DNA of 64,000 nt. Source: Syntrophaceae bacterium (GTDB lineage Bacteria > Desulfobacterota > Syntrophia > Syntrophales > UBA2185). Shown one piece after another: positions 24,179 through 60,293 of this stretch. Numbering within the stretch: position 1 is the stretch's first letter; every line of letters begins with the position of its first letter. The position numbers and the translations under genes were made by a program. The DNA is taken from assembly GCA_003153775.1 (NCBI GenBank), contig PMBI01000050.1, positions 127,325 to 191,324 on the forward strand. The letters are read 5' to 3'. The notes under the pieces are model-generated. The model saw nothing but the letters and a program-made list of their open reading frames with translations. It was not told the origin of the DNA and searched no databases.

Positions 24179-24212
24179 AAAACCCCGCCCATCAGAAGCG
24201 AGCGGGGTTTCT
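24179..24212. terminator. Rho-independent terminator between convergent genes
   Basis: 8-bp stem aaccccgc/gcggggtt. On the minus strand it is followed by TTTTATTTT. Confidence 0.6.
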
Positions 24213-24243: not shown

Positions 24244-24948
24244 TTACTTCGGCTTTTTCCAGAACGGGCCGGTCTTGCCGATTTCTTTCATGCCCTGGAC
24301 CATCTCACGGGCATATTCATGTATGTGTGACAGATAGTCCGCATCCATCCGCCGCCTGAAAAAAGGCCCGGAGAATAATTTGCGCAATTGGTCCAGTGAC
24401 AGGACGCCTTCGTCGGTGCCTTGAACAAAGGACTTCCAGTTGTGGACATGCTCTTCCGACCGGAAGAGATTCATGGTGCTTCAGGCATAACCCGGATCTT
24501 CAAACCATTTCCAGAAGGGCACGGCTACATAGGCCGTGTACCCCGAAGCTTCGTCATTCAAAACGACCCCGTCCCGGATGACCACACGAAGCGGTTCTCC
24601 GCAATCCAGACAGGGGAAATCCACCGTCACTGCCTTGCCAGGGAATAGCCAGCAGACCGCCAGCGATTCGAATGCTCACTGGCCGAACCATTTCTGCTGA
24701 CCGTCGATGGTGATCCGGTATTGGGTTGGAAGGTTGTTGAAGGGAGCGAAGGATACGATGTGGTCTGTGCGGGGATACAGCCACGAAGGGATTCCCGATG
24801 AGAAGAGATCGTGCATGACCTTCCGCCCTTCCTCAACCGGAAGCCCGAGTTCTTGGGCAAGCTCCGTGTAAAAGGGCGCCTGCCCGGTTTCTACCATACG
24901 ATTCATGATGATGTGAAACGCCTTCTCCAGCAATGGGGGTGCGCTCAT
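24244..24948 (-). CDS. MerB (alkylmercury/organomercurial lyase) family protein with two in-frame UGA (predicted selenocysteine) codons
   Basis: ORFs 24676..24948 and 24244..24474 and the Met-less segment between them share one frame (705 nt). The TGA at 24676..24678 aligns with MerB Cys96 (KWFGQ-U-AFE versus LYAWCALD). The TGA at 24481..24483 aligns with Cys159/160 (GYA-U-STMNLFRSEEHVHNW versus [18 protein letters not shown]). Both are followed by GGUC-loop hairpins. Confidence 0.75.
24448..24474 (-). promoter_or_regulatory. SECIS-like hairpin for the second UGA of the MerB-family gene
   Basis: The RNA reads AUG-AAU-CUCUUCC-GGUC-GGAAGAG-CAU, a perfect 7-bp stem with a GGUC apical loop starting 20 nt after the UGA. 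Confidence 0.65.
24648..24664 (-). promoter_or_regulatory. SECIS-like hairpin for the first UGA of the MerB-family gene
   Basis: The RNA reads GCUGGC-GGUCU-GCUGGC, a 6-bp stem including 2 G-U pairs. The loop starts 18 nt after the UGA. Confidence 0.5.
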
Positions 24949-25005
24949 GCTAATTCCTCCTTTATAATTCTGTATTTCAAATCCCCTGTTCAGATGAAAT
25001 TTTAT

Positions 25006-25563
25006 CTACACTTCCTTCATAAAATCAATTGACGTCATGATTTTGAAAAGAGGATAAAGCGGGTTGTTGCGGTACAGGCTCAATGTCGTTTCATGAATTT
25101 CTCTGGTGAAGGCGGCGCAGCAGTCTTCGAGGATACAGGCCTGGAAGTCATTGGACAAGGCGTCAAGGGCGGTCACGAGGACGCACCAGTGGGTACTTAT
25201 GCCGCAGATCGCAACTGTGTCCACTCCGTGCAGCCTGAGAATCTGATCCATATCCGTTTTATAAAAGGCGCTGAACCTGCGCTTGGGGCTGTAAATGTCC
25301 GTCGGAGACTGAATCAAGAGCTCTGTTACTTCCGCGTCCCTTGTCCCGCGGATGGAGCGCTCTTTCATCTTTCCACCGAAGATGAAGTCCCCTTTCAAGA
25401 AACTGTCCATGGAAAAAATCACCGGTATGGACCTGCCCCGCGCGAATTCCGTGAGACGGTTGATATTCGGACACACTGCACGGGCAAGGGGGGTAATCGG
25501 AAATCCCGGTTCAACTTCCAATGAGTCCTTAAGCATATCGACGATAACAATTGCAGGTTTCAT
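25006..25563 (-). CDS. Isochorismatase-family cysteine hydrolase
   Basis: MKPAIVIVDMLKD, RFSAFYKTDMDQILRLHGVDTVAICGISTHWCV. Confidence 0.8.
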   Translation of the reverse strand: MKPAIVIVDMLKDSLEVEPGFPITPLARAVCPNINRLTEFARGRSIPVIFSMDSFLKGDFIFGGKMKERSIRGTRDAEVTELLIQSPTDIYSPKRRFSAFYKTDMDQILRLHGVDTVAICGISTHWCVLVTALDALSNDFQACILEDCCAAFTREIHETTLSLYRNNPLYPLFKIMTSIDFMKEV

Positions 25564-25636: not shown

Positions 25637-27088
25637 TTATCCTTCCTTCATGCCCATGAGCTTCTTGGCCATTTTCTTCTTGGCGTCAAAGTCCGTAAGC
25701 ACGGAGATCATGAACCGCTGGGTCTGCGGGGCGCCGGCGCCGTGCCAGGTGCCCGTGCCGTGCAGGCCGGCTGACCAGTGCTGCAGGAACTTTGCCACCT
25801 TGAGGCGCTTGTCTGCCGGGGCTGCAGCCGCGAAAGCCTTTTTCAGCATGGGACCGACCTCCGGGTCTTCCAGATCCTTCTGCCTCGGCATGGTTACCAC
25901 CAGGCCGCCGCCGATATCTCCGGCGTTCTTGATGATTTCCCAGAATCCGTGGGCGATGTTCAGTTTGGCGGCATTGCCGAAGAGATCGTCCGGCAGGAAG
26001 ACGCCGGATCCCTTCGGTTCTTCTCTTCCCCGCATGGCCGCCGCGATAGCGCAGGCGTGGGATGTCTCGCTGTAGCGGACCATATCAATGATCTTCTCCT
26101 GGATGTGAGGGACCTTGTCCACACCGGTGTATTCGGCGGCAAGCACGGTGCCCCCGATGATCAGGTCGGCGAACCCCACCTTGCAGGCGCCGCCGCAATT
26201 CATGCGGTGGGCCTTGGCGAACCTGGTAACCATTTTCCCGCAGAACTTGGTCTCACCGCAGAGGAAAACTCGCTCCCAGGGAATGAAGACATTGTCAAAG
26301 ACCATCGTCGAGGTTTCCCTCTGTCCGTAGATGGGGGTCCCGAGCTCGGATTCATCTTCACAAAATTCCCGCTCTGCGGAGTAGGCATTGTACTGGCAGA
26401 TGTATGTGAGCCCCGGTGCGCCGTTCTGCACGGCAAAAGCGAGGGCAAAGGCCTCTTCGCCTTCTCTCAACGCGCCGCCTGGCAGAACAAGAGTTTCATG
26501 CGAGCCTATGGCGCCGCTCTGGCTCACCTTGATCCCGCGTACTACGATCCCGTCGTCGCGTTTTTCGACGAGGTGAACGAATGTATCGGGTTCGTCCTGC
26601 TGGGAAGGCCTCTTTTTCCTGTCTCCTTTTGCATCGGTTATGGCGCCGGAGACGGCCAGGTCGTTTGCCTGTGCAAATGCAAGCCACTTGTTGAATCTCT
26701 CATTATATTTCGTTTTCAGATCCCGGTCCATCTCCCACGTCGTCGAAGCAAGGCTGTTGAGGGCATCGCAGCCGACGCAGCGGTAGTTGCAGGTCCCCAC
26801 CGTCTGGCTCGTCAGGAGGGCCATCTCCTGCCGCATGTCCAGGTCGTGGATGTTGCGCGCGACGTTAAGGTTACGGTTGATTGGCTCGCCCGTAAGGTGG
26901 GATGTAGCGACCATGATCTCCTTGTATTTAGGGTCTTCAGCGAGCTCGTAAATCGCCGCGTTGGCCATGACCATGGAACGTGTAATTTTGTTGTTGAGTA
27001 GACCCTTCACCCATTTCCCCCCGCAATAGACACGGGGCGACAGCTTCTTCACGCTCTCCAGATACTCCTTTGAAGTTTTTAATGCCAT
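25637..27088 (-). CDS. 4-hydroxybutyryl-CoA dehydratase / 4-hydroxyphenylacetate hydroxylase-fold family protein (divergent AbfD paralogue)
   Basis: 483 aa, colinear with the abfD gene at 39228. Shared blocks include CNYRCVGCDALN, GAITDAKGDR and HGAGAPQTQRFMI. Confidence 0.8.
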   Translation of the reverse strand: MALKTSKEYLESVKKLSPRVYCGGKWVKGLLNNKITRSMVMANAAIYELAEDPKYKEIMVATSHLTGEPINRNLNVARNIHDLDMRQEMALLTSQTVGTCNYRCVGCDALNSLASTTWEMDRDLKTKYNERFNKWLAFAQANDLAVSGAITDAKGDRKKRPSQQDEPDTFVHLVEKRDDGIVVRGIKVSQSGAIGSHETLVLPGGALREGEEAFALAFAVQNGAPGLTYICQYNAYSAEREFCEDESELGTPIYGQRETSTMVFDNVFIPWERVFLCGETKFCGKMVTRFAKAHRMNCGGACKVGFADLIIGGTVLAAEYTGVDKVPHIQEKIIDMVRYSETSHACAIAAAMRGREEPKGSGVFLPDDLFGNAAKLNIAHGFWEIIKNAGDIGGGLVVTMPRQKDLEDPEVGPMLKKAFAAAAPADKRLKVAKFLQHWSAGLHGTGTWHGAGAPQTQRFMISVLTDFDAKKKMAKKLMGMKEG

Positions 27089-27496: not shown

Positions 27497-28831
27497 TTAC
27501 ATCTTTCCCCTGAGAGACTGGGCCGTGATGTGAATGGCGTCCCATGCGCCACCGAACGGCGGCGCGTATGGAAGATCAAGGTAGCCGACCTCATCCACGG
27601 AGAGTCCCGCCCACAGGGCGACAGAAAGGCTGCTGACCCTTTGAACGGCCCCTTTCTCTCCGATGCACTGTCCGCCGAGAAGTTTTCCCGTTTTCTTATC
27701 TCCAACAAGTTTCACGCCCAGCTTTTCTCCCTTCGCCATGGGACGGCCGACGGGAAGACCCCAGATCATGGCGCTCACCGGCTGGAACCCGTATTTCGCG
27801 GCTTCTTCTTCCGTAAGTCCCGTGGCGGCTACTTCCAGGTTGAAGACCTTGAAGGCCTGGGCGCCCACGACTCCCGGAAATTCCGCCGGGTAACCACCGA
27901 TGTTCTGACCGGCAACACGGCCCTGCTTATTGGCGACATCGCCGAGAGGAAAATAGACCCATCTTCCGGCAACCTTGTGGAAGACCTCACAGCAATCTCC
28001 CACTGCGTAGACCCCTTCCCGGGATGTCTTCTGCCGGAAATCCACCTTGATGGCGCCGCTTTCTCCTAAGGCAATCCCCATGGATTCGGCAAGCGCGGCA
28101 TTTCGCTTTGTGCCGACTCCCATCAGCACGAGGTCGGCATCCAGATCGCCGCCGCTGGTCTGCAGTTTCAACCGGTATTCCTTCCCCTTTTCGATGGCCA
28201 GAGGCTTCGTCTCCGGAAGAAACTCAACCTCGTTCTTGGCCAGTTCTTCCACGATCATCTTCGTGAATTCGGCATCCCACCGTACGGCCGGCCGGGGCAG
28301 GATGTCCATGACCTTCACTTCAATCCCGAGGCTTCTCAAGGCCTCGCACATCTCCATGCCGATATAGCCTGCACCGATCAGAACAGCTTTCCTGCAGCTC
28401 TTTTCGTTCAGGTAGGATTTCATCGTCAAGGCGTGGGTCAAATCCCTGAATACGTAAACGCCGTCCAGGTCTTTGCCCGGAATATCCAGGCGGATCGCTT
28501 CGGCCCCTGTCGCCATGACCAGGAAGTCGTAAGGAAGACTCGTTCCGTCGGACAAAGATAGAGAACTCTTCTTTGTATCGACACTGTCTACGCGCGTCTT
28601 AATCTTTACGTCGATACCCGTTTTCTTGAATTCTTCCGGCGTACGGATAACGAGCTTTTTTGACTCTTTGATTACATCACCGATGTAATAAGGCATCGGT
28701 CAGGCCGCATAGGAAACAAAGTCGCCCTTCTCAATCATCGTCACTTCCAGAGAAGGGTTTCTTCTTTTGGCCTCGGCAGCCGAAGACGGGCCTGCAGCCC
28801 CGCCTCCTACAACAACCAGTTTCTGGCTCAT
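27497..28831 (-). CDS. CoA-disulfide reductase / NADH oxidase family FAD oxidoreductase with in-frame UGA (predicted Sec44) at the redox-active Cys position
   Basis: GGAGG RBS, then MSQKLVVVGGGAAGPSSAAEAKRRNPSLEVTMIEKGDFVSYAA-U-PMPYYIGDV. The TGA at 28700..28702 takes the place of the Cys in the (S/A)F-x-x-C-x-(L/M)PYY motif. The ORF track only shows the part after the UGA. Confidence 0.8.
28672..28688 (-). promoter_or_regulatory. SECIS-like hairpin
   Basis: The RNA reads UUACAUC-GGU-GAUGUAA, a 7-bp stem. The loop starts 19 nt after the UGA. Confidence 0.5.
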
Positions 28832-30942: not shown

Positions 30943-31968
30943 TTACAGCGGCTTTTCGTCCGGCAATTTTTCGCCTAAGGCGAGTCGGCAGATGTCGCTG
31001 ATCATGAAATTTTTCATGCCCGCATCACGCACCTTCTTATTCAGGGTTGCGAAGCACATGGCACAGAGATAGACCATCGCCTCGGCGCCGTGATCCTTCG
31101 CATCCTTGATGTTCTTCTCCCGGAAGGGCTCGAAGTTCTTTCCCCTCGGGAAGAGCTTCAGCCCCGGGCCCGCCACCTCCACGCCGCAGCATATGGCATC
31201 GATGCCGTCGTACTGCCGTTTCACCCGCTCCACCCCGATGAGGTCGAAGATTTCGTCCACCAGGTAATCCTTCTCAGGCGTGTACCGGGAGGCGCATGGA
31301 CGCTGGTAGGCAGCCTTCATATTCAGCTTCCTGACCTTGCCTCTATTTTCCTTGAGATAGTCCCTCAGATATTCAAACAGGTGAACCGTCCGAAAAGGAA
31401 CCTTGATGCCGTATTCGGGTGCAACACCTTTAAGCGCTGCGTAGCAGTCGTCGTGCACGAAGATGATTTCCTTCGCCCCGGACTTTGCCAGGTTGTCCAC
31501 CATGGCCTGCAGACGATTGACCATCACCGACTCGTCCCCCATGTGAGCGAAGAGGACATTGCAGAAGTAGTGCTTCCCTTTGAGGAGCGGCATCGTCTCG
31601 AATAGCTGTCCCTGAATCGCCCAGGGCATGTTGCCCTGCATAACGCAGATGGACATTACCCGGTCTTTGGGCGCCACCGGTTTCGGCTCGCCTTCCGGCT
31701 TAAATCTTTCAGCCATCTGCGCCTTCAGCGCCGGGTCAGTGAAAGTGCCGTCTTCTTCCAGCCGTTTGAGGATCAAGTCGAAGGGACGGGCGCCCTTTGG
31801 GCAATATTCGTTGCAGGCGATGCAGGTCACACAGTCCTTGAGCCACGCAACCTTTTCGCCCTGCACAAGTTTCCTAAATTCCCGGCTTCCGTTTTTCCTG
31901 TCGAAATCCAGGTAGCGGCATAGATTGAGACACTCACCGCAATAATCGCATTTATCTTCGTGAAACAT
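30943..31968 (-). CDS. HdrD/GlpC-like Fe-S oxidoreductase (2x[4Fe-4S] ferredoxin plus CCG domain)
   Basis: CDYCGECLNLCRY, CVTCIACNEYCPKG, and the CCG motif ICCGVEVAG. Confidence 0.75.
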   Translation of the reverse strand: MFHEDKCDYCGECLNLCRYLDFDRKNGSREFRKLVQGEKVAWLKDCVTCIACNEYCPKGARPFDLILKRLEEDGTFTDPALKAQMAERFKPEGEPKPVAPKDRVMSICVMQGNMPWAIQGQLFETMPLLKGKHYFCNVLFAHMGDESVMVNRLQAMVDNLAKSGAKEIIFVHDDCYAALKGVAPEYGIKVPFRTVHLFEYLRDYLKENRGKVRKLNMKAAYQRPCASRYTPEKDYLVDEIFDLIGVERVKRQYDGIDAICCGVEVAGPGLKLFPRGKNFEPFREKNIKDAKDHGAEAMVYLCAMCFATLNKKVRDAGMKNFMISDICRLALGEKLPDEKPL

Positions 31969-32453: not shown

Positions 32454-33707
32454 CTACAGCGCCTCCGCTTCCCGCTTTATACGCTTGCCCGGCCAGCCGT
32501 CCATGAACCAGTTATGGTAAAGCATGACGTTTATAAAGAGGATCACCGGCGCCATGGGAAACTGCTGTGGATGGGAGTAGCCTGCCTGCGTGCCGAGGAG
32601 CTGGTGGCTGTACTTATAATATGCCCAGTGCAGACCGACAGCCACCACGATTGTAATTGCTACGCGGATGAGAATGTTAACTTCCGTGCTGAACTTTCGG
32701 GGCCAGTTGTCAAAGTAGAAGTAAAGGACCAGGCCTACCGTAAGTAGGATAACGGCAAGCTCACCGGTATGAAGGTATCGCCAGTCAGGCGCCATAATGC
32801 GCTTGGCTCCCTCAACAGAGACACCCCAGACCATGTCCTGAAAGAACACGAAGGAGAAGAAGAGAATAAATGCAAGGAGCAGGATAAATAGAAAACCCGC
32901 AATGCCCCGCCAGGGCTGTGACCTCACAAGGCGGAATGGATATCTTTCCAATATCGTCTCCGTCAACCATACCGAGACGGTGGCGCACATGATCCAGCCC
33001 ACGTTAAAATTACCGCTCAGCGTATGGAAAGAATTGTACCACCAGGGAAAAGCCGCCGTATACTCCTGCCAGGGGTAAAAGAGAACGCGATAGTGTGGAT
33101 GCATGAAGATGAGATACGCATAGGTAGTGAGAAGAAAGGTTACTGCAAATACCGTTAATCCTTTGGCAGGCTGTTTCAGCTTGTGCCAGGGATAATTTTC
33201 AAAGGCGGAAGGCCAGATTGGACTCAGCCACGAGGCAATCGCGGCCATCATCAAGATGGCAAGAGATGAGTATTCGCGGGAGAAGAAATCAGATAGTCCC
33301 GTTTTTTTCAGCTCCGGCCAGCTAAAATACGGGATCGCCAGTTTCCCGAAAATGTTGTAGTAGAATACCCAGACGAGGAGTCCTGTAACCGCAAAATTGA
33401 TCGCAATCAGAATCAGGCCTTTCTTAAGAGGGTGTGCCTTTTCCATCCACTCCAGTTTGAATGGCCAGAAGTTGAAGATATAGACCTGCCAAATGGCGAT
33501 GATGAGAAGCCAGCGTATGTACATGTAGCCATACTGGGGCGTATACCAGCGGAGGACCCCGCGAGGATCCATGAAAACCCACCAGAGACCCATGAAGACG
33601 GCAAAGGCCAGGAGCGTATCCAGAATGCCTCGTATGACAGGCTGTTTGATCAGATCGGTTAACTTTCGTTCTTCGAGCCACAATGTATCCAGAGCATTTG
33701 CACTCAT
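32454..33707 (-). CDS. Polytopic, aromatic-rich integral membrane protein of unknown function
   Basis: 417 aa, about 10 hydrophobic segments, strikingly rich in W/Y/F. No family recognised. Confidence 0.55.
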   Translation of the reverse strand: MSANALDTLWLEERKLTDLIKQPVIRGILDTLLAFAVFMGLWWVFMDPRGVLRWYTPQYGYMYIRWLLIIAIWQVYIFNFWPFKLEWMEKAHPLKKGLILIAINFAVTGLLVWVFYYNIFGKLAIPYFSWPELKKTGLSDFFSREYSSLAILMMAAIASWLSPIWPSAFENYPWHKLKQPAKGLTVFAVTFLLTTYAYLIFMHPHYRVLFYPWQEYTAAFPWWYNSFHTLSGNFNVGWIMCATVSVWLTETILERYPFRLVRSQPWRGIAGFLFILLLAFILFFSFVFFQDMVWGVSVEGAKRIMAPDWRYLHTGELAVILLTVGLVLYFYFDNWPRKFSTEVNILIRVAITIVVAVGLHWAYYKYSHQLLGTQAGYSHPQQFPMAPVILFINVMLYHNWFMDGWPGKRIKREAEAL

Positions 33708-33728
33708 TTTATCACCTCCCTTATCTAA

Positions 33729-34820
33729 TTAAGTGATGACCAGTTCATCCCCGTTACCAAGGTAGATGTCCCGCTTACTCATGTGACGGGCAGTACCCTT
33801 GACGACAGGGAGGCCGGCTTTGATCATTTTCTCGGCTGTGATAAAGCCGGTACAGTGATTGCACCCTATTTTCTGTACGCCATACTTGTTGAAGGCCATA
33901 ATAAGATCATCGTATTGGGGATCCCAATCCTCAAAAGGCGAGATGTGAAGGCCACCCTGCACGGCGTATATCTTTTCTCCTCCGACGATCTTCTTTCTCA
34001 CTTCCTCCATGTAGCTGATTATACCCTGATGACAGCATCCGGTCACCAAGACGATACCCTTGTCCTTCACGTTAAAGACAAAGGCCTGTTCGCCGAAGAC
34101 CCGGAGTATGATGGGTACGTCGAAGGTCATAAGGGCAATCCCGGGATATAGGACATTAACCTGCTTGGAATCGAGAACAGTGACTTTTCCCTTGTGTGGA
34201 TGATCATTCTTTACATTGGCTTTCGGGAAGCTCTTCCCTTTTAAAAGATCAAATCCATCCTGATAGAAACCCTTGGGCACATACATAGGTATATCGGGAT
34301 AATGCCGCATGGTGGATTCAATACCAAAAAAATGATCGATGTGCTCGTGGGAAATCACCTGGAAATCTATCTCCTTTTTGGCGAGCTTTTCGGCGATTCC
34401 CTCTTCCTTGAATCTCTTGTCCATCCAATGGGGATTCCATCCTGAGTCCAGAAGGATTTTCATGACCTTCCCATCCATGAGCTCCGCCTCGATATAGGTG
34501 GAGAAGCCCCCCAGATTGTCTCCCAGGTAGCCGGCCTTTACACCCTCCCTCGTCCAGGGGATCTCGTATTGATTGACTAAAAGTCCCCCCGCTTTTTTGA
34601 CGTCATTCAGAAAGACATTGTTGTCATACCAGCTTGTCTCCGAGATGACCTTGATCTTCAACCCCTTAATCTGGCCGATATCTACGAGGTTGACTTTCTC
34701 CTTGGGCAGAAGCTGGCTCTTGAAAACGGTGGATGACAATCCCGCAGCGCCGAAATATCCCGCCAGGGTGCCTACGGCCATCCCCTTGACAAAAGAACGC
34801 CGTGAAAAATCTTTTTCCAT
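33729..34820 (-). CDS. Tat-signal MBL-fold metallo-hydrolase (MJ0301-like subfamily)
   Basis: FSRRSFVKGMAVGTLAG Tat motif, SHEHIDHF (HxHxDH), GCCHQG, GGLHI and NHCTG. Confidence 0.75.
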   Translation of the reverse strand: MEKDFSRRSFVKGMAVGTLAGYFGAAGLSSTVFKSQLLPKEKVNLVDIGQIKGLKIKVISETSWYDNNVFLNDVKKAGGLLVNQYEIPWTREGVKAGYLGDNLGGFSTYIEAELMDGKVMKILLDSGWNPHWMDKRFKEEGIAEKLAKKEIDFQVISHEHIDHFFGIESTMRHYPDIPMYVPKGFYQDGFDLLKGKSFPKANVKNDHPHKGKVTVLDSKQVNVLYPGIALMTFDVPIILRVFGEQAFVFNVKDKGIVLVTGCCHQGIISYMEEVRKKIVGGEKIYAVQGGLHISPFEDWDPQYDDLIMAFNKYGVQKIGCNHCTGFITAEKMIKAGLPVVKGTARHMSKRDIYLGNGDELVIT

Positions 34821-34837
34821 TTTAACAACCTCCTTTG

Positions 34838-34960
34838 CTATTTAGCCATAAGCAGCAATTGGTAGGTCAGCACGAAAAGAACGATACCGACCAAGAGTCC
34901 CAACAGGATACCGCTTCCCCAGCCCTTCTCTTTTTTGACCTCCTTAACATCTTCTTCCAT
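34838..34960 (-). CDS. 40-aa single-TM protein (not in the ORF track)
   Basis: MEEDVKEVKKEKGWGSGILLGLLVGIVLFVLTYQLLLMAK. Its stop lies just upstream of the AAGGAGG RBS of the MBL gene. Confidence 0.4.
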   Translation of the reverse strand: MEEDVKEVKKEKGWGSGILLGLLVGIVLFVLTYQLLLMAK

Positions 34961-34977
34961 TGATCAAGCCTCCTTAT

Positions 34978-35838
34978 TTAGTTTTCCAAATGCATTTCTT
35001 CCAGATCACCGTCAGGCACTAAGGCCAGAACATCTTCCTCTCGGCAGACCAATTCCGTCTGGACGATGATCCTCTCTATATTAAGGGAAGGCTCCGTCTT
35101 GATATCCTTCCCGTCGTTTAAGAATCTCACTCCTTCTCCCCGCCAAATCTGTTCGCGATTAACTTCGTATTGATGAAAAGAAGACCAACTCTTTACGAGT
35201 CCCTGATAGATGGAATTGCTGATTGCGAAGCCGGAGTAATTTCGGTCCAGCGCGCCTTTTTTAAGAGACGTCAAAGGTTGACCATCTCCGTTTCTGATGG
35301 TGTGGTTCTGCGTAACGGCCACCTGCCAGCTCGTCTGTGTCTTAAGCCGTATAACGCTGCCTATAGTGTCTTTGAAAGCGATGTAAAGATGGCCGGCGTA
35401 GAAAAAATCCGGGGGTATGATATCCCTGCCGGCGTAGGAGGGCGCACCCGTGCTTTCTGCAAGATCGGCGAATCGCTGTTCTTCGTGGTTGTGGGAAAGA
35501 CTGTGGCAAGGACATCCGCCTCCGGCCGAGGGCGGGGTCTGAAATACATAACTTGCACGACAGAGTTTTTCCAGAAAAGACAATCCTTCGTACCACGGCT
35601 CGTCTTTATCCGGATAGTATTTAACTACGAATTCTGCCAACCAGTCATAGCCGTCCATAGCTTGTGCCCCGAGAAGATCGAGTTCGTATACCCCAGCGTG
35701 CGCTGCATGCCAAAGATACCAGTATGGCCTGTCATCAATCATGTGGCTGATATATCTCAGCCCGGCTGCTTGCCTGAGCGCATCCTCCGAAAAAAGGACA
35801 AGCCAGAAATGGTTCATCATCCCCGCAACCTGCATGGA
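34978..35838 (-). CDS. Hypothetical protein (start uncertain, possible up to 35895)
   Basis: Long ORF immediately downstream of the Fur-family gene. It contains GGGCPCHSLSHNHEEQ. No family recognised. Confidence 0.5.
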   Translation of the reverse strand, partial: SMQVAGMMNHFWLVLFSEDALRQAAGLRYISHMIDDRPYWYLWHAAHAGVYELDLLGAQAMDGYDWLAEFVVKYYPDKDEPWYEGLSFLEKLCRASYVFQTPPSAGGGCPCHSLSHNHEEQRFADLAESTGAPSYAGRDIIPPDFFYAGHLYIAFKDTIGSVIRLKTQTSWQVAVTQNHTIRNGDGQPLTSLKKGALDRNYSGFAISNSIYQGLVKSWSSFHQYEVNREQIWRGEGVRFLNDGKDIKTEPSLNIERIIVQTELVCREEDVLALVPDGDLEEMHLEN

Positions 35839-35851
35839 CATGTCTGCACGG

Positions 35852-36325
35852 CTACTTCGCATTTTTATTAGTCTTGCATTTGCTGCAGAACCCATAAAAT
35901 TGTATGAGATGGTTAATGATTGTGAAATTATATTTCTTGGACAACCCGGCTTCCGTCTTTTTTAAGAGGGCTAACTCTTCATTGATAAAGTCTGCATAAT
36001 CAATGACACGGCCGCAGCCAGTGCACACCAGATGATGGTGGTGAGCCTCTCCACGGCGGCCTTCGGCTATCTCGTATCTGGCCCTGCCGTCGCCAAAATC
36101 AAACTTATAGACCAGACCGGTACTTACAAGAACCTCCAGCGTTCTGTAAACTGATGTCAAACCAATAGCAGGATAGGAGGCATAAACTTTTATATATATA
36201 TCTTCCGCGCTCAGATGCTCCTTCGCATCTGCCAGAACATTCATGATGGCCTCACGGCCCTGCGTGATCCGGTAGCCGTATCCTTTAAGTTTCCCGCGCA
36301 ACAGCGGCTCCTGTCTGCTCTTCAT
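35852..36325 (-). CDS. Fur-family metalloregulator
   Basis: Winged-helix N-terminal domain, followed by HHHHLVCTGCGRVIDY and FCSKCK. Confidence 0.85.
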   Translation of the reverse strand: MKSRQEPLLRGKLKGYGYRITQGREAIMNVLADAKEHLSAEDIYIKVYASYPAIGLTSVYRTLEVLVSTGLVYKFDFGDGRARYEIAEGRRGEAHHHHLVCTGCGRVIDYADFINEELALLKKTEAGLSKKYNFTIINHLIQFYGFCSKCKTNKNAK

Positions 36326-39227: not shown

Positions 39228-40679
39228 ATGACGCTAAAGACGCCCGAACAATATGAAAATAGTCTGCGTAAGATGAATTTTAAGATCTACCTGATGGGTG
39301 AGCTGGTGGAAAATCCCGTGGACCATCCGATCATCAGGCCTTCGATGAATTCGGTAAAGATGACGTACGCCCTGGCCCAGGACTCCCAGCATGAAGATTT
39401 GATGACCGCTAAATCGCACCTCTCGGGAAAGAAGATCAACCGCTTCTGCCACCTGCACCGGAACACCGAGGATCTGATAAAGAAGGTGAAGATGCAGCGG
39501 CTTTTGGGACAGAAAACAGGGGCATGTTTTCAACGCTGCGTGGGTATGGATGCGATCAACGCCGTGGACAGCGTCACTTTCGAGATGGATAAGAAACTCG
39601 GCACCAAATATCATGAGCGGTTTATCAAGTTCCTCACGATGATGCAGGAAGAAGACCTGACGGTGGATGGCGCCATGACGGACCCCAAGGGTGACCGCAG
39701 CCTGACACCCGGCAAGCAGGCCGATCCGGACCTATTCACGCACGTGGTGGAAAGAAGAAAGGACGGCATCATCGTCCGAGGCGCGAAGGCCCACCAGACG
39801 GGGGCCCTCAACTCCCACTGGATTCTTGTTATGCCGACGATGACCATGACGAAAGAGGACAGCGATTATGCCCTTTCCTTTGTGGCGCCTGCGGACGCCG
39901 AAGGCATATTTTACATTTACGGCCGCCAGTCCTGCGACACGAGGAAACTCGAAGGCGGTGAGATCGACGTGGGCAACAAGGAATTCGGCGGCCACGAGGC
40001 CCTGATGGTCTTTGACAACCTGTTTGTCCCCTGGGAGAACGTGTTCATGTGCGGTGAATACGAATACAGCGGCGCCCTGGTGGAAAGGTTTGCCGGGTAT
40101 CACCGCCAGAGTTACGGCGGCTGCAAGGTAGGCGTGGGCGACGTGCTCATCGGCGCTGCGGCCCTGGCTGCCGATTACAACGGCGCGGCCAAGGCGTCCC
40201 ACATCAAGGACAAGCTCATCGAGATGATGCACCTCAACGAGACCCTCTACGCGTGCGGCATCGCCTGTTCGGCGGAAGGGCACCAGACCGCATCCGGGAA
40301 CTATCTGATTGATCTGCTCCTCGCCAATGTCTGCAAACAGAATGTCACGCGTCTCCCCTACGAGATCGCGAGACTTGCGGAGGATATCGCCGGGGGGTTG
40401 ATGGTCACCATGGCCTCGGAGCAGGACCTCCGCCACCCGGAGATCGGCAAGATAGTGGAAAAATATTTCAAAGGTATTGCGTCGGTTCCGACTGAACATC
40501 GCTGCCGCGTACTGCGGCTGATTGAGAATGTCACCCTCGGTACGGCGGCGGTGGGCTACCGGACGGAATCCATGCACGGCGCAGGCTCACCCCAGGCGCA
40601 GCGGATAATGATCTCACGCCAGGGAAACTTGGCGCACAAGAAGAAGCTGGCCAAAGAAATTGCCGGGATCAAGGACTGA
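39228..40679 (+). CDS. abfD: 4-hydroxybutyryl-CoA dehydratase/vinylacetyl-CoA delta-isomerase
   Basis: Near-colinear with clostridial AbfD as I recall it: KVKMQRLLGQKTGACFQRCVGMDAINAV, GAMTDPKGDR, ERFAGYHRQSYGGCKVGVGD and TESMHGAGSPQAQRIMI. Confidence 0.85.
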   Translation: MTLKTPEQYENSLRKMNFKIYLMGELVENPVDHPIIRPSMNSVKMTYALAQDSQHEDLMTAKSHLSGKKINRFCHLHRNTEDLIKKVKMQRLLGQKTGACFQRCVGMDAINAVDSVTFEMDKKLGTKYHERFIKFLTMMQEEDLTVDGAMTDPKGDRSLTPGKQADPDLFTHVVERRKDGIIVRGAKAHQTGALNSHWILVMPTMTMTKEDSDYALSFVAPADAEGIFYIYGRQSCDTRKLEGGEIDVGNKEFGGHEALMVFDNLFVPWENVFMCGEYEYSGALVERFAGYHRQSYGGCKVGVGDVLIGAAALAADYNGAAKASHIKDKLIEMMHLNETLYACGIACSAEGHQTASGNYLIDLLLANVCKQNVTRLPYEIARLAEDIAGGLMVTMASEQDLRHPEIGKIVEKYFKGIASVPTEHRCRVLRLIENVTLGTAAVGYRTESMHGAGSPQAQRIMISRQGNLAHKKKLAKEIAGIKD

Positions 40680-43682: not shown

Positions 43683-44735
43683 TCAAACTTCCGCCGGAAA
43701 TAATTTCCTTTTAAATATAAGGGCCACATTAACAAGCATGATCATCACCGGCACTTCCACCAAGGGGCCGATTACTGCGGCAAAGGCCACGCCGGACGTA
43801 ATTCCGAAGACTGCGATCGCTACAGCAATAGCCAGCTCAAAGTTATTGCTGGCCGCCGTGAACGCTAAAGTGGTGGTCCGAGAATAATCCGCCCCCAGTT
43901 TCTTGCCCATAAGGAAGGACACAACGAACATGACAATAAAGTAGATTCCCAGGGGTATGGCGATGCGCAACACATCCAAGGGGATAGTAACGATCAAATT
44001 GCCCTTCAGGCTAAACATTACTACGATAGTAAAAAGAAGGGCAATCAGGGTAATCGGTCCAATTTTCGGCACAAAGTTTTTATGATATCTCTCCTTGCCC
44101 ACCAGTTTTAAGCCTAAAAATCTGGTCAATGCTCCGGCGATACAAGGAATGCCCAGGTAGATGAAGACGCTTTCAGCGATCTGGCGGATGCTCACTTCCA
44201 CGATACTTCCCGAAAGCCCGAAGAATGGCGGCAGAACGGTAATAAAAAACCAGGCATAGACACTGAAGAAAAGCACCTGAAAGACACTGTTAAAGGCCAC
44301 CAGGCCAGCAGCGTATTCTGTACTGCCCTTAGCCAGCTCATTCCACACGATCACCATGGCAATGCAGCGGGCCAGTCCGATCATAATTAGTCCAACCATA
44401 TATTCCGGCTTGTCCGGCAGGAAAACCATGGCCAGGATAAACATCAACACCGGTCCAATCAGCCAATTCTGCACAAGGGAAAGCGCCAGTACTTTCTTGT
44501 CGTGAAAGACTTCCGGCATCTCCTCGTACTTTACCTTGGCAAAAGGAGGATACATCATCAAGATGAGCCCGATGGCGATTGGAATGTTGGTGGTCCCAAC
44601 TTGAAACTGATTGATGAAGTGCTCCACTCCAGGCAAAAAGTATCCGAATCCAACACCCAGAGCCATAGCCGCAAAAATCCACACAGTTAAATAGCGGTCC
44701 AGGAATGATAACCTTTTCACAATACCCTCTGACAT
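43683..44735 (-). CDS. acr3: ACR3-family arsenite efflux transporter
   Basis: [44 protein letters not shown]. The start is at MSEGIV after GAGAGGA. Confidence 0.9.
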
Positions 44736-44760
44736 ATATCCATCCTCTCTCAACTGCCGG

Positions 44761-45183
44761 TTATAATTTAATGAATTCTCTTTCAATCCAGTTTTTGATT
44801 TCATCGCGGATCTCTCGAAAACCTGCCATGATTTCCTCTTCTGTCCCGGTCAAGGCCGAAGGATCCTCAAAGCTCCGGTGAAGGATTTTTTTGCCGGCTG
44901 CAAAATATGGACAGGCCTCCTTCGCATGATCACAGACGGTGACCACGCAGTCAAATTGCTGACCGAAAAATTCCTGAATACCTTTTGATCGATGGGCTCC
45001 CATATCGATGCCAATTTCACTCATCACCTTAACGGCATAAGGGCTCACATCTCCTGGCTCAGTACCGGCACTATAGACTTCATAGAGATCTCCATAAAGG
45101 GCACGCAGCAGACCTTCGGCCATCTGGGAACGGGCCGCATTATGGGTGCAGATGAACAGCACCCGTTTTTTATTTCCTGACAC
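44761..45183 (-). CDS. arsC: Arsenate reductase, LMW-PTPase (thioredoxin-coupled) type
   Basis: [17 protein letters not shown] and [13 protein letters not shown] (catalytic Cys plus the Cys82/Cys89 equivalents). GTG start. Confidence 0.85.
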
Positions 45184-45203
45184 CGTGATATTTCACTCCA
45201 CCG

Positions 45204-45443
45204 CTACTTCTCTTCTTCAATCCACTTCTTGATTTCACTGACTGACGGAAGCCTTCCGTATGACTTGACCTTCCCATTTATGACCAGTCCCGGCGTACTG
45301 AGTATACCGTAAGTCATCATCTGTTTCATATCGGTCACCTTGACAACCTCGGCGGCGCAGCCTGTCTCTTTAGCGGCACGTTTAGCCTCTTCGGCGAGCT
45401 TTTCACAGTTGCGGCAACCTGGTCCCAATATCTTAATCTCCAT
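45204..45443 (-). CDS. Thioredoxin-fold redox-active disulfide protein 2 family
   Basis: MEIKILGPGCRNCEKL..STPGLVINGK, preceded by GGAGG. Confidence 0.75.
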   Translation of the reverse strand: MEIKILGPGCRNCEKLAEEAKRAAKETGCAAEVVKVTDMKQMMTYGILSTPGLVINGKVKSYGRLPSVSEIKKWIEEEK

Positions 45444-45457
45444 AGACTTCCCTCCTC

Positions 45458-46408
45458 TCACATGATTGCGTTAAAAAGATAGCCCACCATAATTATGGCG
45501 ACCGTCAGAATGGCAGCAAATATAACCAGCAGCTTTACTTTTAAAACCTTTCTCAGGATGACCATTTCGGGAAATGAAATCGCCGTGACGGCCATCATGA
45601 AAGCCAGCACCGTCCCCAGAGGCATTCCCTTCCCCATCAGCGCCTGCACGATCGGGATTGTGCCCGCGGCATTCGAGTAAAGAGGTATTGCAATCAGGAC
45701 GGCGAGAGGAACTGCAAAGGGATTGTCCCGTCCTGCGTAGGTCGCCACAAAATCTATGGGCACATATCCGTGAATAACTGCGCCGACTCCGATTCCCAGA
45801 AGGACATACAGCGTTACCCGTTTTAGAATGTCCTGGGTATGAAAAGAGGCCAGTTGAAAGCGATCCCGCCAGGAAAGCTTCGGAATTTCCGCCTCGCCCA
45901 TCCTGAGTTCCCACACGTAATCTTCAACCATCTTTTCCACGGCAGGGATGCGTCCCAGGATGATGCCGGAGATGATGGCAACAGTCAGACCCGTTCCGAT
46001 ATAAATCAGGGCAATCTTTGCCCCGAAAAGCCCCCAGAGAAGCACCAGTGCCACTTCGTTGATCATCGGTGAGGCGATCAGAAAGGACAGTGTCACGCCG
46101 AGGGGGACGCCTGCCTCCAAAAAACCGATAAATACCGGTACTGCCGAGCAGGAACAAAAAGGTGTCACAATCCCCAAGAGTGAGGCCAGAATATTTCCGA
46201 CGAACTCAGCCTTCGTGGCAAGTATTTTTTTTACCTTCTCCGGCGGGAAGAAACTTCTGATGACTGATACGATAAAAATTATTGCGGTGAGCATCAGAAG
46301 AATCTTGATGGTATCGTAAATGAAAAAATTCACCGCGTCAGCAAGATGGGTCCCGTCTATAAGCTGAAATATGTCGTACGTCAGCCAGTCTGCAAAGGCT
46401 TTAATCAT
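45458..46408 (-). CDS. COG0701-type permease, ArsP-like
   Basis: Polytopic, with the TPFCSCSAVP motif. Pairing with the thioredoxin-fold protein under ArsR is a recurrent arrangement. Confidence 0.7.
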   Translation of the reverse strand: MIKAFADWLTYDIFQLIDGTHLADAVNFFIYDTIKILLMLTAIIFIVSVIRSFFPPEKVKKILATKAEFVGNILASLLGIVTPFCSCSAVPVFIGFLEAGVPLGVTLSFLIASPMINEVALVLLWGLFGAKIALIYIGTGLTVAIISGIILGRIPAVEKMVEDYVWELRMGEAEIPKLSWRDRFQLASFHTQDILKRVTLYVLLGIGVGAVIHGYVPIDFVATYAGRDNPFAVPLAVLIAIPLYSNAAGTIPIVQALMGKGMPLGTVLAFMMAVTAISFPEMVILRKVLKVKLLVIFAAILTVAIIMVGYLFNAIM

Positions 46409-46457
46409 TTGTTTTGTATGTTCTCCTGTATATTTCTATTGAGCAATATCACTGCGG

Positions 46458-46800
46458 CTACTTGCATATATCTTCACGCCTGATGGACTTGAGGTTTTTT
46501 ATAAGAAGCTGGACCTCCCGATCCTCTGTGATCCAGTGTTTCAGGTTTCCCAGGAGACTCGCGGCATAGGGGCTTTTGCTTCCATCCGTCAGATGGTAAT
46601 TCACCCAGAGACCGTCCTTCTTAAAACCGACGAGACCGGTATCTTCAAGGAACTTGAGATGCTTTGAGACGGTCGGCTGAGCGATGTCCAGAGCCGCCTG
46701 GATTTCGCACACACACATGGCCTTATGCTGCAACATTTTCAAGATCTTTACCCGGTTGGGGTCGGAAAGCGCCTTCATAACCTTTATAAAATCTTTCATG
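46458..46800 (-). CDS. arsR: ArsR/SmtB-family metalloregulator
   Basis: MKDFIKVMKALSDPNRVKILKMLQHKAMCVCEIQAALDIAQPTVSKHLKFL. The longer 155-aa ORF in the track would run over the promoter. Confidence 0.85.
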
Positions 46801-46813
46801 GCTATCCTCGCTT

Positions 46814-46859
46814 GTATATTGCTCGTCGGTAATATACTAACTCCGCCTATTGCTGTCAA
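46814..46859 (-). promoter_or_regulatory. ars operon promoter with an inverted-repeat operator candidate
   Basis: The minus strand reads TTGACA, 17 nt, TATATT. The inverted repeat GTATATT-10 nt-AATATAC overlaps the -10 box and the leader. GAGGA RBS. Confidence 0.5.
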
Positions 46860-46952
46860 GTTTTTTTCACATTTTAGTTCTGACAAGTCAATTCCCTGCG
46901 AGCCCGGCTGTTGAACCAATATCAAGACTGCATATACACTATTGATTTAGTT

Positions 46953-58853: not shown

Positions 58854-60293
58854 TCATCCTTTGATACATCCTAATGCCCGAAGCTTTGCGACCTTCCTGG
58901 AGATGCCTGCCCTGTGAACCACTTCCACCACCTGATCTAAATCCTTATACGCCTCCGGCATCTCTTCACTTAGGGTTCCCTTGCCTGTTGCCATTATGAT
59001 GATGCCCTTGGCGGCCATTTCACGTTCTATCGATCTTCCACGGCTTGCCTTTTTCGCCTGGGTGCGGCTCATGACGCGCCCCGCGCCGTGGCAGGTGCTT
59101 CCGAAGGTCTCCGCAAAGGCTTTCTCCGTCCCCGTGAGTACATACGAGCCCGTCCCCATATCGCCGGGTATCAATACAGGCTGGCCTGTATTTGCATACC
59201 GCGCCGGAAGGGCCGGATGGCCGGGTGGGAAAGCACGGGTCGCTCCCTTCCTGTGAACGCACAGCTTCGTCTCTTTACCATCGACGACAAATGTTTCGAT
59301 CTTGGCGATATTGTGGCAGACGTCGTAAAGCAATGTCATGCCCAAATCGCGGGGCCCTTTTTTCAGGGTCTGTTCGAAGGTCTCACGCGTCCAGTGCATC
59401 ATCATCTGACGATTGGCCCAGGCATAATTGGCGGCACAGGCCATGGCGGCAAGGTATTCCTTCCCCCGGTTTGACGTGAGATACGCGCAGGCAAGCTGCC
59501 TATCGGGAAGGGAGACGTCCAGTTCGCCAAGATGCTTGACCATCCTCGCCAGATAATCATCGCAGACTTGATAGCCAAGTCCCCGCGAGCCGCTATGAAT
59601 GAGAACGCAGATCTGATCCTCTTCAAGGCCAAAGGCAGCGGCGGCCGTTCTATCGAAGATCTCCTCGACAACCTCGATCTCCAGAAAATGATTGCCCGAT
59701 CCGAGCGTTCCCAACTGCTCCCGTCCGCGCTCGATAGCCCTGGCGCTTATCATTTCGGGATCGGCGCCTGCCATCTTACCTCTGTCTTCCGTGGCCTCCA
59801 GATCCTCATGTGTGCCGTATCCCCGCTCCACCGCCCATTTGGCCCCTTCGATGAGAACCTTTTTTTCTTCATTAGCGGAGAGCTTGAGGTCGCTCTTCGA
59901 GCCCACACCGGTAGGGATATGATGATACAGGGCGCTTATCAGTTCTTTTAAACGATCCCTTATGTCTCCATGAGCAAGGCGGGTCGTCACCAGCCGGCAT
60001 CCGCAGTTGATGTCATAGCCCACGCCGCCGGGAGAAATAACTCCATCCTGAAGACCGAAAGCAGCGACGCCGCCTATCGGGAAGCCGTAACCCCAGTGCA
60101 TATCAGGCATGGCCAGAGAATATTTCACAATCCCGGGGAGGTGCGCCACATTGGCCACCTGCTTTGGACTCTCGTCCGAACCCATTTCCCTGATGAGGCG
60201 CTCACTCGAATAGATGATCCCGGGTACCCTCATGCTGCCCGTCTGAGGAATCATCCACCGGCAATCGTCGATCTTCTTGAGTTCAGACATCAA
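58854..60293 (-). CDS. rtcB: RNA-splicing ligase RtcB
   Basis: GYDINCG, HSGSRGLG, GDMGTGSY and CHGAGR motifs. Confidence 0.9.
   Translation of the reverse strand: MMSELKKIDDCRWMIPQTGSMRVPGIIYSSERLIREMGSDESPKQVANVAHLPGIVKYSLAMPDMHWGYGFPIGGVAAFGLQDGVISPGGVGYDINCGCRLVTTRLAHGDIRDRLKELISALYHHIPTGVGSKSDLKLSANEEKKVLIEGAKWAVERGYGTHEDLEATEDRGKMAGADPEMISARAIERGREQLGTLGSGNHFLEIEVVEEIFDRTAAAAFGLEEDQICVLIHSGSRGLGYQVCDDYLARMVKHLGELDVSLPDRQLACAYLTSNRGKEYLAAMACAANYAWANRQMMMHWTRETFEQTLKKGPRDLGMTLLYDVCHNIAKIETFVVDGKETKLCVHRKGATRAFPPGHPALPARYANTGQPVLIPGDMGTGSYVLTGTEKAFAETFGSTCHGAGRVMSRTQAKKASRGRSIEREMAAKGIIIMATGKGTLSEEMPEAYKDLDQVVEVVHRAGISRKVAKLRALGCIKG

Follow-up and report, generated by a model that had tools for sequence, protein, structure and literature searches.

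The gene analysed here lies on the minus strand, at positions 24948..24244, of a stretch of 64,000 nucleotides (nt) of DNA from a Syntrophaceae bacterium (contig PMBI01000050.1), the whole of which we call the window. It is very probably a genuine gene for a protein with two selenocysteine (Sec) residues, specified by in-frame UGA codons at both of the positions that correspond to the metal-binding cysteines of the organomercurial lyase MerB. Comparison with related sequences indicates that it belongs to a distinct, widespread and unannotated family of MerB-like selenoproteins. The combined statement, that this is a di-Sec selenoprotein of MerB fold that acts as an organometal lyase, is likely to hold. 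Taken by itself, the proposal that the MerB-like di-Sec protein is also an organometal lyase, which is argued by analogy, is finely balanced.

The minus strand from 24948 to 24244 is a single frame of 234 sense codons followed by TAA, in which the only internal stops are two TGA codons. The initial annotation of this DNA had joined two minus-strand open reading frames (ORFs), 24676..24948 and 24244..24474, into one; both are in the list of ORFs, in the same frame and interrupted by TGA codons alone. The stretch between the two TGA codons lacks Met, as had been stated, but it is 192 nt (64 codons) in length, the 195 nt originally given having counted one of the TGA codons. This middle segment also has no Shine-Dalgarno (SD) sequence of its own. 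The gene and its two UGA codons are placed as follows.

24244..24948, minus strand: MerB-like gene, complete, with Sec predicted at codons 91 and 156; supported by the fold and by full-length homologues
24676..24678, minus strand: UGA codon 91, predicted Sec, aligned to MerB Cys96
24481..24483, minus strand: UGA codon 156, predicted Sec, aligned to MerB Cys159

Both UGA codons are strongly conserved. A search of 5.8 billion proteins returned 260 homologues of the MerB-like protein, the best 120 of which were inspected by column. Among these 120 were 51 'full-length' proteins with Trp at both columns, 64 protein clusters that have Cys at position 91 and end at residue 155, and two with Cys at both columns. 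At the DNA level (L001 and L002) the 'Trp' at both columns is TGA, while every other Trp codon is TGG, and the 51 proteins are therefore artefacts of gene calling with genetic code 4. A scan of GTDB species representatives gave 511 confirmed relatives and a scan of metagenomes at least 548. From these scans and a few look-ups come 176 gene copies, a set biased towards close matches of the Sec/Sec query, in which codons 91 and 156 are TGA/TGA in 163, Cys/TGA in 11 and Cys/Cys in two. Taken singly, codon 91 is TGA in 163/176 and TGC or TGT in 13/176, and codon 156 is TGA in 174/176 and Cys in 2/176. The initial annotation had pointed to orthologues as the place where TGA might alternate with TGC. 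They do carry either the same two TGA codons or Cys, with conserved protein sequence beyond; rather than ending at these positions, both the frame and the conservation continue past the two codons.

Homologues of full length share 53-95% identity with the window protein over all three segments of the frame, each of which contains residues that are invariant in the family. The closest are found in metagenome-assembled genomes (MAGs) of Syntrophales and 'delta proteobacterium' (L005 at 95% and L006-L012 at 89-93% identity). Carriers of the Sec/Sec form are mostly MAGs of Syntrophales and other Thermodesulfobacteriota, and comprise at least ~77 species-level genomes together with many metagenomes. 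OY970063.1, CP070746.1 and CP070652.1 are examples of complete genomes with this form. In a crude neighbour-joining tree that has no support values the Sec91 and Cys91 forms are interspersed, with about 20 parsimony changes, and a natural Cys/Cys homologue (P0036) is nested within a Sec/Sec group. This suggests that switching between Sec and Cys has been frequent in the family. Overall the sequences point to a large, unnamed clade of MerB-like proteins in anaerobes, with Sec/Sec, Cys/Sec and rare Cys/Cys forms, and with no link to a mer operon or to the SAO operon discussed below. We note that some MAGs have two paralogous Sec/Sec copies (L019 and L023, ~12 kb apart on CAWFOM010000007.1; L015/L075; L069/L071).

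For profile scoring of the protein Cys was put in place of both stops. The read-through product then scores 62.8 bits (E = 4e-17) against the Pfam MerB family PF03243, for which the gathering cutoff is 27, with residues 72-188 matched to profile positions 3-117 of 126. The assignment to the MerB family in the initial annotation is thus borne out at the level of the superfamily. It does not extend to MerB itself, since the protein falls below the NCBIfam equivalog cutoffs for both MerB (PRK13239; 29.9 bits versus 193) and SaoL (NF040728; 30.6 bits versus 140), and no model in NCBIfam release 20 captures it.

The structure was modelled for P0036, which is 55% identical to the window protein. The AlphaFold2 model has a predicted local distance difference test (pLDDT) score of 93.2 and a predicted template modelling (pTM) score of 0.88. 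Using Foldseek, the sole significant matches of this model in the PDB were 11 MerB/MerB2 chains (E 1e-9 to 8e-7), with template modelling (TM) scores of 0.57-0.68 over ~200-230 aligned columns; the next PDB matches have E > 0.6. The N-terminal three-helix domain makes weak matches to the winged helices of LexA and MntR. On the basis of this model the product is predicted to have the MerB fold. Two further elements of the coding sequence are important in the comparison with MerB.

24667..24669, minus strand: GAA codon 94 (Glu), on the column of Asp99, the proton donor of MerB; also the 5′ side of the lower stem of the first hairpin described below
24601..24612, minus strand: codons 113-116, C-L-D-C, of which Cys113, Asp115 and Cys116 are invariant in the family

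Hidden Markov model (HMM) alignments to MerB2 (5c17) and MerB (3f2g) place codon 91 on Cys96, Glu94 on Asp99 and codon 156 on Cys159, in agreement with the placement made in the initial annotation. In the same alignments Cys113 is aligned with MerB Cys117. The three columns of the triad are filled by the chemically analogous Sec, Glu and Sec, none of them identical to the MerB residue. Glu94 is present in 100% of the Sec/Sec set, and is replaced by Asp in a few homologues. The active site would thus be Sec91/Glu94/Sec156, equivalent to Cys96/Asp99/Cys159 of MerB. The protein resembles MerB and MerB2 (EC 4.99.1.2; PDB 3f0o, 3f2g, 5c17) in the order of its domains, with an N-terminal helical domain and a beta-rich core, in the alignment of the three active-site positions and in the correspondence of Cys113 to MerB Cys117. 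By contrast, sequence identity is only ~20%, the triad is Sec/Glu/Sec rather than Cys/Asp/Cys, and the family has traits of its own: an invariant C113-x-D115-C116 motif, which includes the extra Cys116, and a longer C-terminus with an extension of ~25 residues. It differs too in its chromosomal, non-mobile setting with no merR, merT, merP or merA nearby.

The second line of evidence for Sec is in the RNA. Each UGA is followed in the coding sequence by a hairpin resembling a selenocysteine insertion sequence (SECIS).

24643..24669, minus strand: SECIS1; 3-bp lower stem, 2-nt internal loop, 6-bp upper stem GCUGGC/GCUGGC, loop GGUCU (24658..24654)
24451..24468, minus strand: SECIS2; perfect 7-bp stem CUCUUCC/GGAAGAG, apical loop GGUC (24461..24458)

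These are the two hairpins of the initial annotation, and they are present as it wrote them, conserved, and of SECIS-like geometry near to that of fdhF of E. coli. The upper stem of SECIS1 contains two G.U wobbles. The apical loops begin at the 18th (SECIS1) and 20th (SECIS2) nt past the TGA, placing them at nt 21-25 and 23-26 from the U of the UGA. In the E. coli fdhF SECIS, the sequence of which was verified against 5,419 genomes, GGUC is at nt 22-25 from this U, so the loops are within 1 nt of the fdhF position. Both elements are like that of fdhF in being hairpins within the coding sequence immediately 3′ to the UGA, with an apical loop GGUC(U) in a matching position. They differ in having shorter stems (6+3 bp and 7 bp) in which a bulged U is not evident, in that two independent elements occur in one 705-nt gene, and in that binding of SelB is a prediction.

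The choice of codons in the hairpins is restricted. Codon entropy was calculated over 163 distinct Sec/Sec genes at conserved residues, and the mean synonymous-codon entropy is 0.85 bits for codons 92-102 and 0.53 bits for codons 157-167, compared with 1.42 elsewhere; the codons for Leu and Arg in other parts of these genes have ~2 bits. Six-fold codons are fixed within the stems. The stem codons are Ser95 TCG (98% of sequences), Leu96 CTG (93%) and Cys99 TGC (100%), followed after the second UGA by Leu161 CTC (98%), Phe162 TTC (99%), Arg163 CGG (100%), Ser164 TCG (100%) and Glu165 GAA (98%).

Across the family the apical loop of SECIS1 is RGUYN, in which the G and U are invariant. In this hairpin 99.4% of cells are paired, compared with 26-64% when the partners are slid, and the third positions that vary are exactly those that are unpaired, or those at which both alleles pair (G-U/G-C, A-U/G-U). 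SECIS2 has the GGUC loop in 137 of 139 distinct sequences, with 98.2% of cells paired compared with 42-59% when slid. Here three pairs exhibit two-sided compensatory changes (C-G to U-A, U-A to G-C) in 16 cells, and none of 500 shuffles reached this.

We have, then, an intact gene, the MerB fold, corresponding residues, and conservation of both UGAs and of both hairpins, and a mechanism may be proposed. UGA91 and UGA156 would each be read as Sec by means of its own SECIS hairpin directly downstream in the coding sequence. The invariant GU of each apical loop lies 22-25 nt from the U of the UGA, as in E. coli fdhF, and the hairpin would recruit SelB carrying Sec-tRNA(Sec). In MerB, Hg is held by Cys96 and Cys159, and release of the hydrocarbon depends on a proton shuttled by Asp99. 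By extension, an organometal substrate such as methylmercury would be bound through its metal by the two selenolates of the present protein. Selenolates are deprotonated at neutral pH and are very thiophilic; they would hold the metal more tightly than the thiols of MerB, with no need for deprotonation. The carboxylate of Glu94 would give a proton to the leaving carbon, cleaving the metal-carbon bond. The actual insertion of Sec, the catalytic activity and the nature of the substrate we infer.

A number of observations weigh against this interpretation. The single-sequence folding energies of the hairpins are unexceptional when compared with shuffles (z = +0.47 and -1.63), and Rfam gave no SECIS or other RNA family, either at gathering thresholds on the whole window or in permissive mode on the gene. 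Moreover, TGA sites with at least 40 open codons on each side are common, with ~125 in the six frames of the window. Because such sites are common and the hairpin energies unremarkable, the sequence of the window alone is no proof, and the case rests on homology and comparative data. The finding is nevertheless far above chance, because homology spans both TGA codons and these are conserved in other genomes.

Further points of this kind concern the hairpins in comparative data. SECIS1 has no two-sided changes, and is backed by conservation and the pattern at synonymous sites, not by covariation. Homologues with Cys were considered as clean negative controls for the hairpins, and this was partly successful. 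In the Cys156 homologue L003 the sequence NLFRSREH is written in different codons and hairpin 2 is lost, but the Cys/Cys form L174 (1430-2146) keeps hairpin 2, and a hairpin-1-like stem is kept in ~4 of 6 distinct Cys91 forms, where the first G of the loop is often A. Hairpin 1 may be partly dictated by the peptide L-A-V-C-W, or it may be a relic. More generally, the hairpins retained in the Cys forms may be relics of frequent and recent exchange between Sec and Cys, or else the L-A-V-C-W and F-R-S-E-E peptides may predispose the mRNA to form them. Note that the Cys-bearing homologues that still have a SECIS-like hairpin past the Cys codon are L174 (1430-2146), L004 (5193-5903) and L124.

The remaining points concern decoding and catalysis. 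No selA, selB or selD was found among the ~40 ORFs of the window scanned with Pfam and NCBIfam, or in the fetched loci, and tRNA-Sec was absent from the results of tRNA scans of the window and of 10 kb on either side of 44 loci. Decoding of Sec in this genome is therefore supported indirectly. As regards lyase activity, there is no MerA partner to remove tightly bound Hg(II), the protein is far below the MerB and SaoL equivalog cutoffs and has Glu instead of Asp, and there are no conserved neighbours that would hint at the substrate.

Indirect support for the use of Sec by this organism is given by a second gene in the window, and by the lineage, which is rich in Sec.

27497..28831, minus strand: gene of the CoA-disulfide reductase (CoADR)/NADH oxidase family, a second predicted selenoprotein with TGA at 28702..28700; 2.5 kb upstream of the MerB-like gene

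The CoADR-type protein matches 6ruz with E = 2e-94, and has a single in-frame TGA, which aligns with the redox-active Cys (SYAA-U-PMPYY). Its family is among the selenoproteins catalogued in PMC13188914 Table 1, and the cultured Syntrophus aciditrophicus, of the same order, has 19 selenoproteins (PMC1794560). We note a possible SECIS in the CoADR-type gene, UUACAUC-GGU-GAUGUAA, with GGU at nt 22-24 from the U of the UGA; this candidate is weak (-4.7 kcal/mol), and the minimum free energy fold favours another hairpin.

The alternative that survives best accepts a genuine di-Sec protein on the MerB scaffold but not a lyase. It would instead be an oxidoreductase with a redox-active selenenyl-selenide, or else a trap, chaperone or sensor of very high affinity for soft metals (Hg, Cd, Cu or As). 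We judge such a redox or metal-trap role, the main rival, to be improbable. Most bacterial selenoproteins are redox proteins (PMC13188914), and redox genes are near in the window (the CoADR-type Sec gene, a C_GCAxxG_C_C protein and a CxxCxxCC protein), although these neighbours are common to close relatives only. A complex of Hg with two selenolates would be a product that is very hard to release, with no MerA present, and the invariant C113-x-D-C116 motif is specific to the family. The weak similarity of the N-terminal three-helix domain to the winged helices of LexA and MntR is a further point in its favour, and such a domain might give a regulatory role, but MerB, an enzyme, has the same N-terminal helical domain. 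Finally, a carboxylate fills the Asp99 position almost without exception, which argues for the delivery of a proton rather than for simple binding or disulfide-type chemistry.

It is far less probable that UGA is read as one of the standard amino acids (Trp, Cys or Gly), through an alternative code or near-cognate suppression. The JGI and NCBI pipelines have translated the 51 homologues with TGA as Trp, and misreading of UGA as Cys or Trp does occur at Sec codons under selenium limitation. Yet TGA terminates 13 of the 46 large ORFs in the window, as an ordinary stop, and the standard code gives a coding density of 87%; genome-wide reassignment of TGA (codes 4 or 25) was rejected on these grounds. 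In addition, the other Trp codons of the gene are all TGG, the residue aligned in homologues is Cys and never Trp, and SECIS-like hairpins are conserved at the right distance.

Least probable of all is that the UGA codons are real stops, the locus being a decayed MerB pseudogene, three small genes or the result of sequencing or assembly errors: gene callers and GenBank do give fragments of 90, 49-64 and 73-77 amino acids (aa) as 'hypothetical protein', and the window is without Sec machinery, but the same two TGA codons recur in 163 independent assemblies (from ~77 species-level genomes as well as many metagenomes), protein identity of 53-95% extends across and beyond both, other members have Cys in exactly these columns, the middle segment has neither Met nor SD of its own, and there is constraint at the RNA level past each TGA. 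Both the pseudogene or sequencing-error explanation and that of an alternative code are effectively excluded.

We return to the di-Sec MerB-like protein and its relation to known selenoproteins. The initial annotation was unsure whether Sec-containing homologues of MerB had been described. One has, as SaoL (NF040728) is a MerB-like selenoprotein of the SAO system (Haft & Gwadz, bioRxiv 10.1101/2022.07.06.499078), but it has one Sec in a CU motif, not two. SaoL has the residues Cys99/Asp102/Sec162 with a CU dipeptide, and is encoded in a nine-gene SAO locus, mostly in Firmicutes, that also holds an ABC (ATP-binding cassette) transporter, an efflux pump and others (10.1101/2022.07.06.499078). 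The two proteins share the MerB fold (PF03243), Sec in the place of MerB Cys159 and a carboxylate in that of Asp99. Strict anaerobes are the hosts of both, and the database entries of both break off at the UGA. They differ in that SaoL has Cys-Sec together with Cys at the Cys96 position, whereas in the present protein the dipeptide is Ala-Sec, another Sec takes the Cys96 position, and Asp gives way to Glu. The context of Sec156 is Y-A-U-S, and across the family the Sec is preceded by Ala or Ser/Thr, with no CU dipeptide. Furthermore, SaoL is found in the conserved SAO locus, while the MerB-like gene stands alone and is mainly found in Thermodesulfobacteriota. The family thus lacks all three defining features of SaoL, i.e. 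the HMM cutoff, the CU motif and the neighbourhood.

Other bacterial proteins with more than one Sec include the metal-binding double selenoprotein MbdU, a UxxU metal-binding protein and TsoB (PMC13188914 Table 1). They too have two Sec per polypeptide, and several of these are proposed metal ligands, but both folds and motifs are different and the Sec residues are usually close together (UxxU, CU repeats). In the MerB-like protein they are 65 residues apart, each with its own SECIS, and are predicted, from their alignment to the two cysteines that ligate Hg in MerB, to meet in one active site. The NCBIfam scan gave no match of the protein to the MbdU, UxxU protein or TsoB models.

Signals for the expression of the MerB-like gene are found on both sides of the coding sequence.

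24956..24962, minus strand: Shine-Dalgarno sequence AAGGAGG, 7 nt ahead of the ATG at 24948..24946; read from the sequence
24999..25028, minus strand: candidate sigma-70-like promoter TTGATT-18-TAAAAT, matching the consensus at 9/12 positions
24179..24211, minus strand: intrinsic terminator, strong; 13-bp GC-rich stem then U-run, 33 nt past the TAA

The promoter candidate is weak, being a consensus match alone with 0.7 expected by chance. The locus forms a single intact gene that is transcribed independently and encodes a cytoplasmic protein of 234 residues.

The window is chromosomal and non-mobile, with gyrA and ftsH within it. A plasmid search with the neighbouring gene for a resistance-nodulation-division (RND) pump gave no match, which fits these chromosomal markers. 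Genes for PaaK, an acyl-CoA dehydrogenase, methylmalonyl-CoA mutase and a tungsten-cofactor radical S-adenosylmethionine (SAM) maturase are those of an anaerobe that degrades fatty acids or aromatic compounds. The neighbours of the MerB-like gene encode isochorismatase-family and HpaB-like proteins, the CoADR-type Sec protein, the C_GCAxxG_C_C and CxxCxxCC proteins, an EamA transporter and the RND pump. They are common only to relatives that are at least ~90% identical, and no neighbour is recurrent in ~150 loci: when 897 flanking ORFs were clustered de novo, the most widespread families were limited to 12 loci at most. The initial annotation had seen no mer operon genes nearby, and scans of ~40 ORFs of the window with Pfam and NCBIfam concur, finding no mer genes. 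The nearby flavoprotein is CoADR-like and not MerA (129.8 bits versus 454.45). Nor does the locus of the MerB-like gene have an ABC transporter or a SaoE-like set. A mer-like or SAO-like cassette was therefore rejected, given neighbours shared only with close relatives and no recurrent flanking family; the MerB-like gene is a stand-alone unit.

Some other features of the window deserve mention. A cluster resembling those for arsenic resistance lies ~19 kb away at 43683-46925 (minus strand), and comprises an arsenite carrier of the ACR3/SBF type, a permease of the ArsP type and small ORFs on the flanks. At 32454-35895 (minus strand) three large ORFs in succession (417, 363 and 305 aa) are without a Pfam match at E <= 1e-5, and an adjoining ORF of 341 aa (30943-31968) has only a faint NCBIfam match, to 'diclust_near_Sec'. 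There are two HpaB-family genes, at 25637-27088 (minus strand) and 39228-40679 (plus strand), similar to 4-hydroxyphenylacetate hydroxylase/4-hydroxybutyryl-CoA dehydratase; they sit beside genes for acyl-CoA dehydrogenase and an iron-type alcohol dehydrogenase (Fe-ADH), in what is otherwise the context of a strict anaerobe. Lastly, the best NCBIfam match of an RtcB-family RNA ligase gene at 58854-60293 (minus strand) is to the model for intein-containing RtcB, with 750 bits against a cutoff of 1150; the gene covers only the C-terminal part of that model.

The family is new to current catalogues. In the May 2026 catalogue of 119 prokaryotic selenoprotein families SaoL is the sole MerB entry, and two or three Sec are found in only a small subset (PMC13188914). 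The MerB-like di-Sec family is listed neither there nor in NCBIfam, and a search of the literature for organomercurial or alkylmercury lyase together with selenocysteine found SaoL as the only MerB-like selenoprotein. In public records the Sec/Sec genes appear as 'hypothetical protein' pieces of ~90, 49-64 and 73-77 aa (e.g. HET6459767.1, MGZ6249481.1), and the Cys/Sec genes as an 'organomercurial lyase' truncated at 155 aa (HZQ37779.1). All the database copies seen were fragmented or translated with the wrong genetic code. The analysis would thus add a widespread selenoprotein family, carried by hundreds of anaerobic bacteria, that has been missed by current catalogues and annotation pipelines. 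Within the literature and libraries searched, it would be the first protein to have Sec in place of both cysteines with which MerB ligates its metal. As a rare bacterial protein with two well-separated Sec, each with its own SECIS, it would provide a natural system for the study of double recoding, and would allow one to ask what the substitution of Se for S does to the cleavage of a metal-carbon bond.

Synthetic selenium-based mimics of MerB cleave Hg-C bonds, and the degradation of methylmercury in anoxic habitats without a mer operon is an acknowledged gap (PMC10114901). The family is a candidate degrader of organometals, e.g. methylmercury, in oxygen-free habitats, and could serve as a molecular marker provided that probes and gene callers read through the UGA codons. 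It is possible, though rather unlikely, that the Sec/Sec (and Sec/Cys) MerB-like clade is the enzyme of mer-independent cleavage of methylmercury, or of other natural organometals or organometalloids, in anoxic sediments, peat and groundwater. Were the proposal true, the mercury-methylating guilds of Thermodesulfobacteriota, whose own HgcA is usually a selenoprotein, would also have a demethylase that depends on selenium, and the availability of selenium would be tied directly to the net accumulation of methylmercury.

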